Shown one piece after another: positions 7,616 to 35,527 of a stretch of DNA of 64,000 bases. The notes beneath the pieces are model-generated. The model was not told the DNA's origin and searched no databases. It worked only from the letters and a program-made list of their open reading frames with translations. The stretch is from Clostridia bacterium (GTDB lineage Bacteria > Bacillota > Clostridia > Christensenellales > Aristaeellaceae), in the NCBI GenBank assembly GCA_030529995.1, contig JAUMVT010000007.1, positions 4,170 through 68,169 on the forward strand. The letters run 5' to 3'. The first letter of the stretch is position 1; each line of letters starts with the position of its first letter. Both the position numbers and the translations under genes were made by a program.

Positions 7616-8806
7616 TTACTGTGCCTTCACAGCTTCAGCATGTTCCTTTTTGATCTTCGCCAGTAGCTCCGGGTCTTCCAGCAGATCCAGCGCTGTCAGT
7701 GCCATGACCTTTGCGCCAAGGCCGATGGAAGCAAGCCCCAGAGGAGACTTGGCTGCCGCCTTGAACTCCTCACTGTGGGCAGGCACCACCTGCTCGGAAA
7801 TGGTAATATGGGGCTGAATGGTAGGCACCACCTGAGAAATGTTGCCCACGTCGCTGGAGCCCATTTCATCCTGGGGCTCGATGGGACGCACATGCTCCCC
7901 AAACTCCTCCAGATGCTTCTGATACACCGCATCAAAGGAGGGGGTGACCACCGTGTTTTCCACAATGTTCTGGTAGGGCTGCATCCGTCCCTTTGCTCCG
8001 GTCATCAGAGCCGCGCCTTCCACAATGTGCTCAACCTGCTCGTAAATCTTTTTCATCATGGGCGCTGTGGCCGCACGGAGGTAGAACTTTCCCTTGGCGT
8101 ACTCGGGCACAATGTTCGGTGCCGTGCCGCCATTGACGATAATACCATGGATACGCACATCATCCGTGCAGTGCTGCCGCAGGGCATCAATACCACGATA
8201 GGTCATGAGCAGGGCATTCAGTGCGTTGATGCCGTTTTCCGGGCAGCTGGCCGCATGGGCTGCCTTGCCCCAGAACTCAATGTCCACCGGAGCGCAGCCC
8301 AGGGTCTTGGTGGTCAGCGTGTGCACACCGGCACCGGGATGAACGCACAGCGCCGCATCCACGTCCTTCAGGAAACCTTCCCGAACAAAGCTGCCCTTGG
8401 CGCTGCCGTTTTCGCCGCCCTCTTCGCCGGGAGTGCCGTAGACACGAACCTCGCCGCCTACCTGGTCAATCACCTGCTTCAGGCAGGCCGCTGCCAGGGA
8501 AGAGGTTGCGCCGAACAGGTTGTGGCCGCATCCGTGACCCAAGCCTGCCAGCGCGTCAAACTCTGCCAGGAACACAATCACCGGGCCGGGTTTGCCGGAA
8601 GCATAGCGGGCGTCGAAGCCTGTCCGATGCCCCGCCACGTCCGTCTTCACGTCAAAGCCTTCCTTGCGGAGCATGTCGCTCAGGTGCTCGCAGGCAAAGA
8701 ACTCGTAATTGCTCACCTCGGGATGTGCATGAATATCCAGCGCCAGCTGCTGATAGTCCTTCAGCCTTTCATCAGCATAGGCAACGATCGTATCACGACG
8801 ACTCAT
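7616..8806 (-). CDS. M20-family amidohydrolase/peptidase
   Basis: M20 metal-binding patterns are present: FLAEFDAL..GHGCGHNL and GTPGEEGG, plus a dimerisation insert. There is a 4-nt overlap with metI. Confidence 0.85.
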   Translation of the reverse strand: MSRRDTIVAYADERLKDYQQLALDIHAHPEVSNYEFFACEHLSDMLRKEGFDVKTDVAGHRTGFDARYASGKPGPVIVFLAEFDALAGLGHGCGHNLFGATSSLAAACLKQVIDQVGGEVRVYGTPGEEGGENGSAKGSFVREGFLKDVDAALCVHPGAGVHTLTTKTLGCAPVDIEFWGKAAHAASCPENGINALNALLMTYRGIDALRQHCTDDVRIHGIIVNGGTAPNIVPEYAKGKFYLRAATAPMMKKIYEQVEHIVEGAALMTGAKGRMQPYQNIVENTVVTPSFDAVYQKHLEEFGEHVRPIEPQDEMGSSDVGNISQVVPTIQPHITISEQVVPAHSEEFKAAAKSPLGLASIGLGAKVMALTALDLLEDPELLAKIKKEHAEAVKAQ

Positions 8807-9528
8807 AGGGTTTCCTTCTCTCCTTTATCATGACGATGGGCGAACAGCGACCGATTGGTGGTGCGCCGTGCCAGCAGGTTGCCAAGGCTCTGCAGGGCGA
8901 ATACCACCAGCAGCAGCACCACTACGCACACATTCACAATGTCCGGGTGATTCTGGTTCTGGCCATAGTTGATGGCAAAGCTGCCGATGCCGCCTGCGCC
9001 TACTGCGCCGGCCATGGTGGTCAGACCGATCAGACTGATGGCCGTCACCGTGGTAACACGAATCAGCTCCGGCACCGCCTCATGGAGATACACCCGGAAG
9101 ATCAGCCCCAGCACGCTGCTGCCCATGCTCCGGGCAGCCTCCACCTTGCCGGCATCCACCCCGGACAGGGCAACCTCCACCTGACGGGTGTAGAAAGGCA
9201 CTGCGCCGAACACCAGCGGAAGGATGGCACCCTTGACGCCGATGGCCGTGCCTACGACAGCTCTGGTCAGGGGAATGAGGAAGATCAGCAGGATCAGGAA
9301 GGGGATGGAGCGGAAAATGTTCACGATGATGTTGGTCAGCTGGTAGACCAGCGCATTCGGTGCAATACCGCCCTTCTTGGTTACCACCAGCAGAATGCCC
9401 AGCAGAAGACCTACCGCAAAGGCGATGACGCCGGCCTTCAGGAACATTTCCACCGTGGCCTGGCAGCTGCTGACAAACTTATCGAAGTAATTATACAGGT
9501 TTGGGGCAAACTGTTCAATGAGTTCCAT
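8803..9528 (-). CDS. metI: Methionine ABC transporter permease
   Basis: Start trimmed to MELIEQFAPNLY. Carries the MetI-type EAA loop region (EAARSMGSS) and five TM segments. Overlaps metN by 14 nt. Confidence 0.9.
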   Translation of the reverse strand: MELIEQFAPNLYNYFDKFVSSCQATVEMFLKAGVIAFAVGLLLGILLVVTKKGGIAPNALVYQLTNIIVNIFRSIPFLILLIFLIPLTRAVVGTAIGVKGAILPLVFGAVPFYTRQVEVALSGVDAGKVEAARSMGSSVLGLIFRVYLHEAVPELIRVTTVTAISLIGLTTMAGAVGAGGIGSFAINYGQNQNHPDIVNVCVVVLLLVVFALQSLGNLLARRTTNRSLFAHRHDKGEKETL

Positions 9529-10591
9529 CAGCCAGCACCTCCATCTGAATATGATTCTCTGCCAGGTAGGCCATGCCCTTGGCAATGCCATCGGCATCGC
9601 CGCCCAGCACCACAATCATGCTGCCAAGGGGATTGCCCTGCAGCAGATCCACATTGGCCAGCACAATGTTCACATCCATGCCGAACTGCTTGGTGGCGGA
9701 AGAAATAATGTGCTCGCCCACGCAGTCCTTCTGGAAGGTCAGCTTCACCAGCTTTTCTCCCTGCTTCAGCCGCACCAGAGGATCATTGCCCCCCATGAGC
9801 CGGTCAATCTTGCTCAGGGGCGTGGAGGAGGCCACAAACCGGCGGGTAATTTCCGCCTGAGGATGAGCGAATACGTCGTACACGCTGCCTTCCTCCACTA
9901 CCCGGCCATTTTCCATCACTGCCAGGCGGCCGCACACGGCCTTGATCACGGCCATTTCATGGGTGATCAGCACAATGGTCAGGCCAAGCTTCCGGTTCAG
10001 GTCTTGCAGCAAGTTCAGGATCGATTCCGTGGCATCCGGGTCAAGGGCACTGGTGGCCTCATCGGAAAGCAGCACCTTAGGGTTGTTGGCCAGGGCGCGG
10101 GCAATGGCAACACGCTGCTTTTGTCCGCCGGAAAGCTGGGAGGGATACACGTCAATCTTGTCCCTTAAGCCCACCATGTCCAGCAGTTCGCATACCCGAT
10201 GATGAATGTCCTTCTCCTTCATGCCGGTATAGCGGAGGGGATAGGCGATGTTTTCAAACACCGTGGAACGATCCAGCAGGTTGAAGTGCTGAAAAATCAT
10301 GCCGATGCCCCGGCGCATGGTATTCAGCTCCTTGGCGGTCATGGCCTTGCTGCCCCGGTAGATCTTCCCGTTCCGTGGGGTCAGCACGCCGGAGTCGCCC
10401 ACTTCCAGGGTGCCTTCATCCGGAGTTTCCAGCAGGTTGAGGCAGCGCACCAGGGTGGACTTGCCGCCGCCGGAGTAGCCGATGATGCCGTAAATTTCGC
10501 CGTCATGAATGGTCAGGGACACGTCCTGCACAGCGTGCACGTCTCCGGTCTTTAAGTGGAAGGTTTTGCTTAAATGCTTGATCTCGATCAT
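9515..10591 (-). CDS. metN: Methionine ABC transporter ATP-binding protein with C-terminal NIL domain
   Basis: Start at MIEIKHL behind AAGGAAAGG. Walker A GYSGGGKST, signature LSGGQKQR and Walker B LLSDEATSALD are present, with a NIL-like C-terminus. Confidence 0.9.
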   Translation of the reverse strand: MIEIKHLSKTFHLKTGDVHAVQDVSLTIHDGEIYGIIGYSGGGKSTLVRCLNLLETPDEGTLEVGDSGVLTPRNGKIYRGSKAMTAKELNTMRRGIGMIFQHFNLLDRSTVFENIAYPLRYTGMKEKDIHHRVCELLDMVGLRDKIDVYPSQLSGGQKQRVAIARALANNPKVLLSDEATSALDPDATESILNLLQDLNRKLGLTIVLITHEMAVIKAVCGRLAVMENGRVVEEGSVYDVFAHPQAEITRRFVASSTPLSKIDRLMGGNDPLVRLKQGEKLVKLTFQKDCVGEHIISSATKQFGMDVNIVLANVDLLQGNPLGSMIVVLGGDADGIAKGMAYLAENHIQMEVLADGTH

Positions 10592-10696: not shown

Positions 10697-11611
10697 TTAC
10701 TTGACTTCGCCGGCAGCTGCCTTCAGCTCGTCCAGAGAAGCATACTTCAGGGAGTACAGGGTCAGGGGAGCAATCAAGGTGTCAGCGATGGCGGTCAGGT
10801 CATAACCGTTGGCAGCAGCATCGTTGTTCAGGTAAGCCTTGTGCTGGAAAGCGTTCAGGTCGATTTCACCGGAGTTCAGTGCTTCGTTGGGCAGGTTGTA
10901 AGCGTCGAACTCTACCAGCTCGATGTAGATGTTGGCGCCTTCGTCGTCCAGCACCTTCTGCACAACCTTCCAGTGGTCGTTGTTGGCACCGCACACGCCA
11001 ACCTTCACAACGGTCTTGCCTTCCTTGTCGGAGGTGTAGCGGATGTAGTCGGTCACATTGTCCTCGGTGATGGTGAAGTCAGCAGAGGCATCATAGTCGA
11101 AGGCAGGGAAGAAAGCTTCCTTATAATTCACCAGCAGGAATTCGGCTACCAGCTGGGTGTGGAAAGCATCCACGATGGTCTTGTAGGTCTCGTTCTCGGC
11201 ATCAGCAGTACGGGCAACGATGATGTTCACATAAGGGTTGTCGCCCTCTTCGCTCTGCTGCTCAATGATCAGGCCGTCCTTGGAAGGAACCAGGCCGAAG
11301 GGAATAGCATAAGTGCCGTTGATGGTGGAAGCGGCGAAGTCGCCCAGGGTGGAGGGCAGGGTGTTGGCCTGTACCGGCACTACTTCTACATTATATAGGT
11401 AACCGGTGATGTCAGCGATTTCGGGAGTATAACCAGCTTCGGGATCCACGGTCAGCAGGCCGGCAGCCTCCAGCAGCTTAATGCCGCGGGAAAGGTTGGT
11501 GCCGTCGTCCGGGATGCCGATCTGAAGGGTTTCAGCGGAAGCAAATGCCGTGCAGGAGAAAACAATCAACAGGCTGAGAATCAGGGATACAATCTTCTTC
11601 GTAGCTTTCAT
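10697..11611 (-). CDS. metQ: Methionine-binding protein, MetQ/NlpA family (secreted, possibly a lipoprotein)
   Basis: Signal peptide with a Cys (LLIVFSCTAFASA), NlpA-family body, AAGGAG SD. Confidence 0.9.
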   Translation of the reverse strand: MKATKKIVSLILSLLIVFSCTAFASAETLQIGIPDDGTNLSRGIKLLEAAGLLTVDPEAGYTPEIADITGYLYNVEVVPVQANTLPSTLGDFAASTINGTYAIPFGLVPSKDGLIIEQQSEEGDNPYVNIIVARTADAENETYKTIVDAFHTQLVAEFLLVNYKEAFFPAFDYDASADFTITEDNVTDYIRYTSDKEGKTVVKVGVCGANNDHWKVVQKVLDDEGANIYIELVEFDAYNLPNEALNSGEIDLNAFQHKAYLNNDAAANGYDLTAIADTLIAPLTLYSLKYASLDELKAAAGEVK

Positions 11612-11728
11612 GGTAACAATCTCCTTATCCGTTTTTCTTTTTCGTTGGTGGGATTAACGTGCATCACAGGATCTGGCATTCGATCCCTCACGCCGCCGAA
11701 ATGGTTCATCGGATCCATCCTCCTGACA

Positions 11729-11761
11729 TAAAAAATGAAGGGCAGCCATGCGCTGTCCTTC
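11729..11761 (-). terminator. Intrinsic terminator inside the met operon leader (attenuator)
   Basis: Minus strand: GAAGGACAGC-gcatg-GCTGCCCTTC (9 of 10 bp) followed by ATTTTTTAT. It lies between the promoter and metQ. Confidence 0.75.
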
Positions 11762-11785
11762 ACGGTACATCATGAAAGATCCGAA

Positions 11786-11866
11786 TTACATTCGGCAAGC
11801 GGCGCATGGGAAAACAAAGCACATGCCCATACGCATCATCATGGTGTTCATAGCGGTGCGTTCCAT
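11786..11866 (-). CDS. Candidate regulatory leader peptide MERTAMNTMMMRMGMCFVFPCAACRM (26 aa, 8 Met and 3 Cys)
   Basis: Hand-translated. AAGGAGG lies 8 nt upstream of the ATG. The stop lies in a small CCGAAT-gta-ATTCGG hairpin, and the terminator starts about 25 nt downstream. Confidence 0.55.
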   Translation of the reverse strand: MERTAMNTMMMRMGMCFVFPCAACRM

Positions 11867-11898
11867 GCGTCCTTCCTCCTTCGAATCGGAATGGTGCA

Positions 11899-11927
11899 AT
11901 CATAGCACAGGGCAAGGGGATTGTCAA
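11899..11927 (-). promoter_or_regulatory. Sigma70-type promoter of the met leader and operon
   Basis: Minus strand: TTGACA, 17 nt, TATGAT. Confidence 0.65.
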
Positions 11928-12001
11928 CAGGGAATCCTTGTTTTTCTGTTGTTTTTCATGAACGATTTTTGCTTTCTTTTGTTTTTCGTTTGCCTTTTTC
12001 A

Positions 12002-12030
12002 TTGCTTTCCGATAGAAAAAGTGATATAGT
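12002..12030 (+). promoter_or_regulatory. Candidate promoter of the BMP-family gene
   Basis: TTGCTT, 17 nt, TATAGT. It lies 43 nt upstream of the start. Confidence 0.4.
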
Positions 12031-12072
12031 CATATCAGTTACAAACCCCATTTGAAAGGAGTCTTCTCTCCC

Positions 12073-13194
12073 ATGAAAAAGCTGATGTCCCTGCTTCTTG
12101 TCCTTGCCATGGCTCTGTGCTCCCTGACCTTCGCCTCCGCTGAAGACGGACTGAACGTGCTGCTGCTGGTTCCCAGCACGGAGGGTAGCTACTTCTCTGC
12201 CTCCGTTCTTGCCGTGAAGGATTTGGAGACCAAGTACCCCGGCACTACCACGGAAACCATCGCCATGGGTGCCATCCCCATGGATAAGGCAAGCGCAGAA
12301 TACGAGCTGGAAACCTACATGCCCTTCTTAGAAGATGCCTGCGCCTCCGGCAAGTATGATCTGATCATCACCATGGGCGCCGAGTGCAACGCGGCACTCA
12401 TTGCCGCCGCCCAGAAGTATCCTGAGCAGAAGTTCTTCAGCGCTGACTTGCAGGGCATTGAAGGCTCCGCACTGGAGACCGATCCCCTGAGCAACGTGTA
12501 CGGCCTGATGTACAAGAGCCAGGACATCGGCTATCTGGCCGGTTATGTAGCTTGCCTGGTCACCACCAGCGACATGCCCAAGGCCAATGCGGATAAGAAG
12601 GTCGGCGTTATCGTCGGCATCGACGCTCCCGGCCTGAACGAGTACATCGGCAGCTTCTGCCAGGTGTGCGAGGAGCAGGGCGTCACGGTGTACATTGACT
12701 ACGCCGGCGACTTCATTGCGGATATTGCTCCCCAGGTGGCCGAAAAGGCAGCCGCCATGTATGCCGAAGGTGTTGACGTGATCTGGCAGGTGGCAGGCAG
12801 TGCCGGCTCCGGCGTATTCACCGCCGCAAAGGAAGCAGGCCGCTATGCCTTTGGTGTGGACTGCGACCAGACCCTGACCGTTTCCGATCCGGATGAAGCG
12901 GCCACCATTGTGACTTCCTTCTATGCGGACTACGGCGCTGCCATTGATTCCGTGTTTGCCTCTGTGCTGGACGGCACCTTCGTCGGCGGCACTTATCCGC
13001 TGGTCGGCCTGAACGAGGGCTTCATCGGCTATGCTCACAACGATCAGTTCATGGCCATGACCACTCAGGACATTCAGGACAAGATCGCTGCCCTGTATGA
13101 CAGCGTGAAGACCAATCCTGTGGAAATCTTCAGCGTCACCGCCGATCCCGAAGGTTGGGAAACCCTGAAGCTGGCTGTTTCTCCCAAGGACTGA
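12073..13194 (+). CDS. BMP-family (Med/PnrA-like) ABC-transporter substrate-binding protein, secreted or lipoprotein
   Basis: Start at MKKLMSLLLVLAMALCS behind GAAAGGA. The periplasmic-binding fold pattern resembles basic membrane protein family members. Confidence 0.8.
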   Translation: MKKLMSLLLVLAMALCSLTFASAEDGLNVLLLVPSTEGSYFSASVLAVKDLETKYPGTTTETIAMGAIPMDKASAEYELETYMPFLEDACASGKYDLIITMGAECNAALIAAAQKYPEQKFFSADLQGIEGSALETDPLSNVYGLMYKSQDIGYLAGYVACLVTTSDMPKANADKKVGVIVGIDAPGLNEYIGSFCQVCEEQGVTVYIDYAGDFIADIAPQVAEKAAAMYAEGVDVIWQVAGSAGSGVFTAAKEAGRYAFGVDCDQTLTVSDPDEAATIVTSFYADYGAAIDSVFASVLDGTFVGGTYPLVGLNEGFIGYAHNDQFMAMTTQDIQDKIAALYDSVKTNPVEIFSVTADPEGWETLKLAVSPKD

Positions 13195-35304: not shown

Positions 35305-35527
35305 ATGTACAGGCAATGAAGGAATGAGTACCGGGCAGGATGCGCCAAGAGAGCTGCAGCAGGTGGAAAGCAGCCGCAGAGTGTTTGGGAACATGGCTCC
35401 GGAGCTTTGAGGCTGAAGACAGTAGGCTGCAACGGGTCGCGCCGTTATCCGCAGGAAAAGTGATAAATCAGGGTGGCAACGCGGATTCAGTCCGCCCCTC
35501 GGAACAACCGATGGGGTGGACTTTTTA
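35305..35527 (+). promoter_or_regulatory. T-box leader (tRNA-sensing riboswitch), probable Met specifier, with terminator
   Basis: AAGAGAG bulge motif at about 35347. Candidate specifier GGAAC-AUG-G at 35393-35395. Conserved T-box sequence AATCAGGGTGGCAACGCGG at 35466-35484. Terminator GTCCGCCCC..TGGGGTGGAC plus TTTTT at 35489-35526. Confidence 0.8.

Follow-up and report, generated by a model that had tools for sequence, protein, structure and literature searches.

Leader-peptide attenuation is a textbook mechanism, and methionine (Met) control in Firmicutes is attributed to the S-box, the SMK-box, the T-box, and protein regulators. Among the specificities recorded for leader-peptide attenuators, methionine is, to our knowledge, almost missing. 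Here we examine a short open reading frame (ORF) rich in Met and cysteine (Cys) codons, termed ORF1, that lies together with an intrinsic terminator upstream of the metQ operon in a 64-kb stretch of DNA from a Clostridia bacterium. This whole stretch is called the window, coordinates are positions within it, and both the leader and the metQ operon are on its minus strand. A preliminary description had interpreted the leader as a candidate Met attenuator, and the comparative and folding evidence given below supports this prediction of regulation. We consider it probable that the leader functions as a Met-responsive, ribosome-mediated transcription attenuator of the metQ-metN-metI-amidohydrolase operon. 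Such a device would report the supply of charged tRNA-Met, and possibly also that of tRNA-Cys.

The classical attenuators of E. coli and Salmonella (trpL, hisL, leuL, thrL, pheL, and ilvL) share with this locus an ORF that is preceded by a Shine–Dalgarno sequence (SD) and rich in codons for the regulated amino acid, a downstream intrinsic terminator, mutually exclusive 1:2, 2:3, and 3:4 pairings, and an association with genes of the cognate pathway. However, the amino acid here is Met (with Cys), which is outside the classical set, the genes are mainly those of a transporter, and the hosts are Clostridia and Spirochaetales. The architecture also departs from the classical one, in that segment 1 is the ribosome-binding site (RBS) and start of the leader, the regulatory codons are located in the 1:2 loop, and the antiterminator predicted for the window is a three-way junction. 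At the level of sequence, the window leader carries every testable defining feature of a leader-peptide attenuator. Its apparent Met(-Cys) specificity and the three architectural features would be new, as would the coupling to a second, undescribed upstream ORF (uORF2).

Ribosome-dependent attenuation in Gram-positive hosts, at positions where T-boxes or riboswitches are the norm, is also found in the Firmicutes his leader (PMC2965389) and in the ilv leaders of S. aureus (PMC5794164) and Listeria (PMC5864092), but these are specific for histidine or for branched-chain amino acids. The S-box (SAM-I) and the Met T-box are likewise terminator–antiterminator switches that act on the same kinds of genes, and the T-box also reads the charging of tRNA-Met. 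Unlike the leader examined here, they use no ORF and no ribosome, and their RNA motifs are absent from the window leader. Cys-rich leaders of Actinobacteria (PMC1262725; bioRxiv 10.1101/834739) share short upstream ORFs, runs of sulfur amino acid codons, sulfur amino acid genes, and ribosome stalling. They differ in having Cys runs only, in often being leaderless, in lacking an intrinsic terminator (Rho-dependent or translational control is proposed), and in belonging to another phylum.

Full-text literature searches yielded no described Met leader-peptide attenuator except an annotation in S. lividans. The reannotation of strain TK24 lists a leaderless ‘metL’ (MSTTSDRTPATEATTTPGARCMCRRMCAF, then stop) before metNIQ, as an annotation only and with no terminator found (PMC8079986). 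Like the window leader, metL is short, immediately precedes Met transporter genes (metNIQ), and is proposed to be methionine-dependent. It ends in CMCRRMCAF, a tail similar to the MCMC and RMC motifs of the present leaders, although this likeness is one of context and motif only. Unlike the leaders described below, it is leaderless, has only two internal Met codons and no terminator that could be found, and was annotated without comparative or experimental support. The preliminary description, which knew of no described Met leader-peptide attenuator, overlooked metL.

Elements of the window leader

The promoter, SD, 26-codon ORF, terminator, and three complementary segments named in the preliminary description are all present at the positions given there, and that observation is confirmed. 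The elements, all on the minus strand, are as follows.

11899–11927, minus strand: sigma-70-type promoter TTGACA-17-TATGAT with a TG extension (–35 at 11927–11922, –10 at 11904–11899).
11862–11881, minus strand: segment 1, which runs from the SD AAGGAGG (11881–11875) through the start codon into codon 2; GGACGCATGG, at 11872–11863, is part of it, and its partner is segment 2.
11786–11866, minus strand: leader ORF1, 26 codons plus TAA, MERTAMNTMMMRMGMCFVFPCAACRM then stop (from the ORF listing and its translation).
11822–11851, minus strand: proposed stall zone, in which the regulatory Met codons 6, 9, 10, 11, 13, and 15 are clustered, with Cys16 adjoining.
11801–11810, minus strand: segment 2, CCCATGCGCC, codons 20–22, a partner for either segment 1 or segment 3.
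11781–11795, minus strand: P2 hairpin CCGAAT-GTA-ATTCGG, which carries the end of the ORF with its stop codon and contains CGA ATG TAA; the predicted middle arm of the antiterminator junction.
11772–11779, minus strand: UCUUUCAU, the 5′ strand of P3, whose partner is the lower 5′ arm of the terminator, GUGAAGGA.
11730–11763, minus strand: intrinsic terminator, consisting of a hairpin of 7 + 4 pairs with a 1 × 1 mismatch (GTGAAGGACAGCGCATGGCTGCCCTTCAT, 11763–11735) and U6 (T run at 11735–11730); segment 4 is its 3′ arm.
11746–11755, minus strand: segment 3, the upper 5′ arm and loop of the terminator, CAGCGCATGG (11755–11746), with the complementary part GCGCATGG at 11753–11746.

The promoter matches the consensus at 11 of 12 positions, and the region holds three promoter-like sites versus 0.8 expected. 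ORF1 has eight Met and three Cys codons among its 26, and 8 nt separate its SD from the ATG. The whole window holds 30 SD-preceded ORFs of 15 to 40 codons, and ORF1 alone has seven internal Met codons; the runner-up has five and the others have two or fewer. The terminator hairpin has a predicted stability of –15.6 to –16.1 kcal/mol (RNAfold). It was not listed by a simple terminator scanner, its upper stem having only four pairs above the 1 × 1 mismatch, and RNAfold-based terminator detection was substituted for that scanner.

Conservation of ORF1 among related metQ loci

We took 80 metQ loci from GTDB representative genomes, ∼78 of which have usable upstream sequence. A short Met/Cys-rich ORF with its own SD is present upstream of metQ in 41 of these ∼78 loci, distributed among Clostridia and Spirochaetales. 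All 41 leaders have an SD and a start codon, with 5 to 10 Met codons, 1 to 6 Cys codons, and peptides of 20 to 35 codons; in four of the 41 loci, the ORF extends to 73 to 75 codons. Met accounts for 24.6% of leader residues versus 2.55% in the long ORFs of the window (∼10-fold), and Cys accounts for 12.6% versus a background of 2.0% (∼6-fold). Counted over 41 distinct ORFs, 319 ATG triplets are in frame, whereas the two remaining frames have 1 and 9. The leaders can be arranged in three groups.

Group A, Christensenellales-like Clostridia including the window: ..MMM(M)R.GMCMCMC..[FP]C[AV]C..
Group B, Oscillospiraceae-like: ..MMMP.MRMWMYMCMM..LSAS, then stop.
Group C, Spirochaetales (Bullifex and relatives): ..M.YMCM.SMMMP..A, then stop.

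Between groups the sequence of the leader peptide drifts, whereas its composition, SD, and position stay constant. Nearly all relatives in groups A and B keep the promoter TTGACA-17-TATNAT, at a distance of 28 to 45 nt upstream of the ATG of the leader. A hairpin with a U run follows the leader ORF, or in a few loci overlaps it, in 40 of the 42 leaders examined, and a stricter search for a single hairpin still identified a terminator in 39 of the 42. In L037 and L048, the best-scoring hairpin is located inside the ORF and was not taken as the terminator. Alignment of orthologous leaders thus bears out the Met-rich ORF, SD, promoter, and terminator that had been recognized in the window. Spirochaete loci have two Met-rich leaders, one before metN and one before metQ, and the metN copies have separate strong terminators.

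The window leader has a single ATGTGC (Met-Cys) unit (11816–11827, minus strand), and its closest relatives, L001 to L004 (MetQ 90–99% identical), have three (MGMCFVF versus MGMCMCMCFVF). This difference has the appearance of slippage in the repeat, or possibly of a collapse during assembly, and the number of units alters the predicted no-ribosome state. One of these relatives, L001 (CAVGBO010000060.1; MetQ 99% identical to that of the window), is labeled Phocaeicola dorei, and all the other close relatives are Clostridia metagenome-assembled genomes. The label is probably a binning or labeling error.

Genes associated with the leader type

In the window, the genes that follow the leader encode Met transport proteins (MetQ, MetN-NIL, and MetI). 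Metagenome contigs were also scanned with the pattern ATGATGATG-N(3-12)-ATGTGCATGTG, which left 84 leaders of many distinct families after filtering. The next gene encodes a Met ATP-binding cassette (ABC) transporter component (metQ, or metN with a NIL domain) in 57 of the 84, and a pyridoxal phosphate enzyme of Cys/Met metabolism of the O-acetylhomoserine sulfhydrylase type (MetY-like) in 14; the remainder are singletons that resemble noise. In most metagenome leader families, the terminator is located 11 to 35 nt past the leader stop codon. The order of short Met/Cys leader, terminator, and MetY-like gene was seen in L081, L109, L113, L128, L133, L160, L163, L199, and others, and one 14-codon Met/Cys leader, MMMSMCMCNRFRRV, is situated 87 nt before a MetY-like gene.

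The MetY-like sulfhydrylases behind this leader type, together with the Cys enrichment of the leaders and the recurrence of the MCMCMC motif, are what would be expected if the leader sensed both sulfur amino acids jointly, or mainly Cys, with stalling at Cys codons as important as that at Met codons. Polycysteine leaders are moreover known in Actinobacteria (PMC1262725; bioRxiv 10.1101/834739). However, Met codons outnumber Cys codons by ∼2:1, spirochaete leaders usually have a single Cys, and the window leader is short of two Met-Cys units with its Met run intact. Group B leaders have Trp or Tyr (UGG or UAC) in place of Cys between Met codons (MRMWMYMCMM), which indicates an RNA-level constraint of the form AUGUNN. 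Furthermore, (AUGUGC)n is self-complementary and can form a hairpin, so the Cys codons may serve RNA structure. On this balance, we regard joint or Cys-dominated sensing as rather unlikely.

The same comparisons bear on whether ORF1 instead encodes a functional Met/Cys-rich micropeptide (for example, one that is metal-binding, redox-active, or membrane-associated) whose position before metQ is operonic and not regulatory. The strong SD, the conservation of the sequence as an ORF, and the fairly well conserved C-terminal C-x-C of group A would fit such a function. Nevertheless, only composition and not peptide sequence is conserved across groups, the length varies by ATGTGC repeat slippage, a terminator separates the ORF from the operon, and the ORF precedes three different classes of Met genes. 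The C-x-C codons also fall in the very stretch of RNA for which covariation with the terminator is seen (see below). A micropeptide role is consequently very hard to credit.

Comparison with known RNA families

Rfam searches found nothing matching the window leader, either at gathering score in a scan of the window or at E ≤ 10 within positions 11400–12200, and a scan of 40 related loci gave zero matches in any Met-run leader. The models for SAM-I and other S-adenosylmethionine (SAM) and S-adenosylhomocysteine riboswitches are unmatched in the window leader, as is the T-box model (RF00230), whose only match in the window is at 35307–35502. The lack of S-box and Met T-box motifs that had been noted by inspection is therefore upheld by the Rfam scan. 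SAM-I was detected in the orthologous loci L063 and L069, which indicates that the covariance-model method works. Upstream of orthologous operons, a SAM-I riboswitch is found in Synergistota-like loci and a T-box in Erysipelotrichales- and Anaeroplasma-like loci. The presence of SAM-I or a T-box elsewhere in place of the Met-run leader is the replacement pattern expected if these elements are interchangeable Met sensors.

Because Firmicutes Met operons are usually under riboswitch or T-box control, and some orthologues of this operon carry SAM-I or a T-box, we also considered that the leader might be an undescribed RNA that binds a metabolite (SAM or Met) or a protein, with the in-frame ATG codons being incidental. 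The conserved helices described below could be accommodated by such an RNA. However, unless the leader is translated, it is difficult to account for the 319:1:9 frame bias of ATG, the conserved spacing of SD and start codon, and a reading frame that stays intact through indels. There is also no conserved unpaired core across groups that resembles a ligand pocket, and no Rfam family matches. We therefore judge an RNA sensor of this kind to be highly improbable.

Alternative pairings of the leader RNA

When 16 group A leaders were aligned with MAFFT without guidance, RNAalifold recovered the 2:3 helix (columns 127–133 with 187–193), which shows a GC-to-AU exchange at two positions. Of the cells in this helix, 87.5% are paired, and its covariation score of 0.313 compares with 0.199 when shuffled, with 0 of 500 shuffles reaching the score. 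Slid controls are far lower save at +2, where an RY repeat accounts for the exception. In most group A loci, the best partner of the terminator 5′ arm and loop is located within the final ∼25 nt of the ORF. For GC-rich terminators, z-scores of the duplexes relative to mononucleotide shuffles are weak, and tests of cognate against permuted partners were used in their place. Cognate ORF-end/terminator duplexes are more stable than permuted ones (–17.5 versus –15.3 kcal/mol, p ∼ 0.001), and the same holds for 2:3-type duplexes in 14 independent metagenome families (–13.4 versus –12.1 kcal/mol, p = 0.04).

The 1:2 helix is formed by the leader SD, the start codon, and codons 2 and 3, which pair with a UUUG motif and segment 2. 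The duplex is predicted at –19.0 kcal/mol in the window and at –19 to –33 kcal/mol in group A, with 75.6% of cells paired versus 34 to 51% when slid. Again, cognate duplexes are more stable than permuted ones (p ∼ 0.001), including among independent families (–17.1 versus –13.1 kcal/mol, p < 5e-5). Thus, both pairings that had been drawn for the window recur in relatives, the 2:3 helix with covariation and both with cognate partners favored. The complementarities behind the 1:2, 2:3, and 3:4 pairings of the proposed trp-type layout do exist, but the layout needs revision because segment 1 is the RBS and start of the leader plus codons 2 and 3, and the Met codons are located in the 1:2 loop.

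When the window RNA is free from codon 20 to the terminator loop, its minimum free energy structure is a three-way junction of –27.5 kcal/mol, compared with –16.1 kcal/mol for the terminator alone. In P1 of this predicted junction, CCAUGCGC (codons 20–22) pairs with GCGCAUGG in the terminator loop and upper arm. P2 is CCGAAU-GUA-AUUCGG and carries the stop codon, and in P3 UCUUUCAU pairs with GUGAAGGA in the lower 5′ arm of the terminator. A compensated insertion in P3 can be read from the sequence of L005, in which CUUUCCAU pairs with GUGGAGGG. The alternative pairings of the preliminary description therefore hold insofar as the 2:3 antiterminator excludes the terminator in window folds, but the antiterminator is larger than had been drawn, being a three-way junction that includes UCUUUCAU and the stop-codon hairpin.

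We modeled the ribosome by masking 12 nt downstream of the A-site codon. The predicted probability of the window terminator is 0.00 with a ribosome stalled at Met15, 0.04 with a stall in the middle of the cluster, 0.98 with a ribosome at the stop codon, and 0.44 with no ribosome. This equilibrium model predicts the same stall-to-stop switch in about half of the group A relatives.

Proposed mechanism of attenuation

What is observed is the set of conserved leader elements, the bias in codons, the link to Met genes, and complementarities that show some covariation; these can be combined in the following model. Transcription would start ∼25 nt upstream of ORF1. When Met is ample, the ribosome would reach the end of ORF1 and cover segment 2 and the stop-codon hairpin P2; helix 3:4 with U6 would then form, and the polymerase would terminate at 11730–11735, before metQ. 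When charged tRNA-Met is scarce, the ribosome would stall in codons 6 to 15 and leave segment 2 free, and queued ribosomes may cover segment 1. The free segment 2 would pair with the terminator loop and upper 5′ arm and UCUUUCAU with the lower 5′ arm; with the stop-codon hairpin between both helices, this would yield the three-way-junction antiterminator, and the operon would be transcribed. With no ribosome, segment 2 would tend to pair with segment 1, which in most relatives is predicted to restore termination and to close the leader RBS. More speculatively, the self-complementary (AUGUGC)n, which is followed by a U-rich run, could act as a pause hairpin that synchronizes ribosome and polymerase. 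Stalling, the relative timing of ribosome and polymerase, the efficiency of termination, and the response to methionine are the parts of this model that we infer.

Several points weigh against Met-responsive attenuation. Transcription and translation are reported to be uncoupled in Firmicutes such as B. subtilis, so the model needs a polymerase pause, which is itself a speculative prediction. Met starvation should impair initiation as well. In the other half of the group A relatives and throughout group B, the terminator is dominant at equilibrium whatever the ribosome state, and a switch in those relatives would therefore have to be kinetic. We did not accept the equilibrium three-state model as general proof, since no group B leader and only about half of those in group A show the switch in it. 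The fold of the whole window leader shows only a modest gain over shuffles (z = –1.9). Covariation in the 1:2 helix is not above that of column shuffles (80 of 500 reach the score), although indels and bulges in the MAFFT alignment hamper the counting of columns. The shuffle and permutation controls for both helices leave phylogenetic relatedness in, and we take them as supportive but not conclusive. In four loci (L009, L012, L013, and L014), the stop codon of ORF1 is lost and the frame passes through the terminator into uORF2, giving ORFs of 73 to 75 codons that end in ..TDRM and stop. Finally, in the spirochaete metQ leaders (L064 and L070 to L080; ∼90–115 nt upstream of metQ), the hairpin that precedes the U run has the terminal MMM-Pro codons as its 5′ arm and the stop codon inside its 3′ arm, an arrangement at odds with the same timing model. 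No coherent version of that model could be derived for these leaders, their Met codons being a hairpin arm.

If Met-responsive attenuation is nevertheless the correct reading, these leaders would constitute a conserved Met(-Cys) class in many gut Clostridia and in Spirochaetales, found before genes for Met uptake and biosynthesis, and would add a new specificity to leader-peptide attenuation. The class would help to annotate many unexplained 5′ terminators in gut metagenomes, and it would provide a natural case of ribosome-dependent attenuation in lineages thought to be without tight coupling of transcription and translation. It would also pose a puzzle specific to Met, since the amino acid that is sensed is also required for initiation.

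A second conserved upstream ORF

The element list of the preliminary description was incomplete, because it overlooked a conserved ORF between the terminator and metQ.

11608–11725, minus strand: uORF2, with SD CAGGAGGA (11725–11718), ATG at 11709, and peptide MNHFGGVRDRMPDPV..., between the terminator and metQ.

In the window, uORF2 contains the invariant CGA ATG at 11682–11677, and its TGA stop codon overlaps the metQ ATG as ATGA. ORF1 of the window likewise terminates with CGA AUG UAA. The uORF2 core, [GR][GA]-x-x-[DS]-R-M (GG-x-x-D-R-M), was seen among the related loci L001 to L068 and is found in nearly all group A and B leaders, often with UGA directly after it. Of 77 loci, 44 have CGAATG in the 260 nt upstream of metQ, versus 0.047 expected per locus, and the Met codon is mostly 62 to 83 nt before the metQ ATG. 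In an unbiased scan, 35 of 36 cases use CGA for the Arg, yet CGA makes up only 4.5 to 6.4% of Arg codons and is used in 0 of 40 and 4 of 86 R-M dipeptides of long ORFs. The Gly and Asp codons vary synonymously, which indicates that selection acts on the peptide.

In seven loci (L006, L008, L038, L053, L054, L058, and L059), there is no Met-run leader but a nearly invariant promoter and a 13-codon upstream ORF, MLFHPGGSNSRMC then stop, with no terminator. These ORFs are situated ∼50 to 170 nt upstream of metQ, and the loci appear to represent the uORF2 element standing alone. One locus of the MetY-like type, L199, has a uORF2-like MKNIFEQLVRANFRFGRM then stop, with CGA ATG TGA.

uORF2 resembles tnaC/TnaC and other arrest-peptide upstream ORFs in being a conserved short peptide located upstream, in having a critical codon next to or near the stop codon, and in being followed by a possibly rut-like spacer. 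Unlike tnaC, its invariant feature is a rare-codon pair, CGA-AUG, and any ligand sensing or Rho involvement would be hypothetical. Possible mechanisms include AUG decoding sensitized by CGA, an arrest peptide, Rho access, and occlusion of the metQ RBS.

It is conceivable that uORF2 is the decisive control of metQ, acting by codon-pair or nascent-peptide stalling on metQ translation or Rho access, and that the Met-run attenuator is an accessory first tier. uORF2 is more widespread before metQ than ORF1, its 44 of 77 loci including some without ORF1, and its CGA-AUG is essentially invariant even though CGA is the rarest Arg codon. The selection evident on its peptide and a spacer mildly richer in C than in G point the same way. 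In contrast, no structure tying uORF2 to the metQ SD or RBS is consistent across loci, the tail past DRM ranges from 0 to ∼20 codons, and the C > G bias of the spacer is weak (C 0.26 versus G 0.20). uORF2 is also absent before metN-first operons (0 of 10) and from the spirochaete loci. Primary control by uORF2 is compatible with Met-responsive attenuation by ORF1 and does not exclude it, and we hold it to be a possibility short of an even chance.

Tentatively, the two ORFs might form a two-tier Met sensor. The first tier would be the Met-run attenuator, and the second would be uORF2 (M-x(n)-G-G-x-x-D-R-M), in which CGA, the rarest Arg codon, in the P site would sensitize AUG decoding, or the nascent peptide would arrest the ribosome, such that a single Met codon gates metQ. 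Ribosome-based Met sensing would then be widespread in gut Clostridia and Spirochaetales at sites that textbooks assign to S-box and T-box RNAs, and the invariant CGA-AUG of uORF2 could reveal a sensor based on a codon pair.

The downstream operon and a T-box in the window

The genes downstream of the leader are arranged as follows.

10697–11611, minus strand: metQ, encoding a substrate-binding lipoprotein of the NlpA/MetQ family (Pfam PF03180, E = 5e-58; best NCBIfam match MetQ).
7616–10591, minus strand: metN (ABC ATPase with NIL domain), metI (permease), and an M20-family amidohydrolase gene, co-oriented and downstream of metQ.

The single T-box of the window (101 bits; 35307–35502, plus strand) is directly upstream of metG (methionine-tRNA ligase, NF008900, 970 bits) and has AUG at the specifier position. 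Therefore, the same genome senses tRNA-Met charging by a T-box as well.

The window MetQ protein (10697–11611, minus strand) aligns to MetQ/NlpA profiles as two swapped pieces, with residues 28–157 corresponding to profile positions 130–257 and residues 195–300 to positions 13–118. Such an alignment suggests that the order of the domains is circularly permuted. The same swapped arrangement is seen in the MetQ of the metagenomic locus L085.

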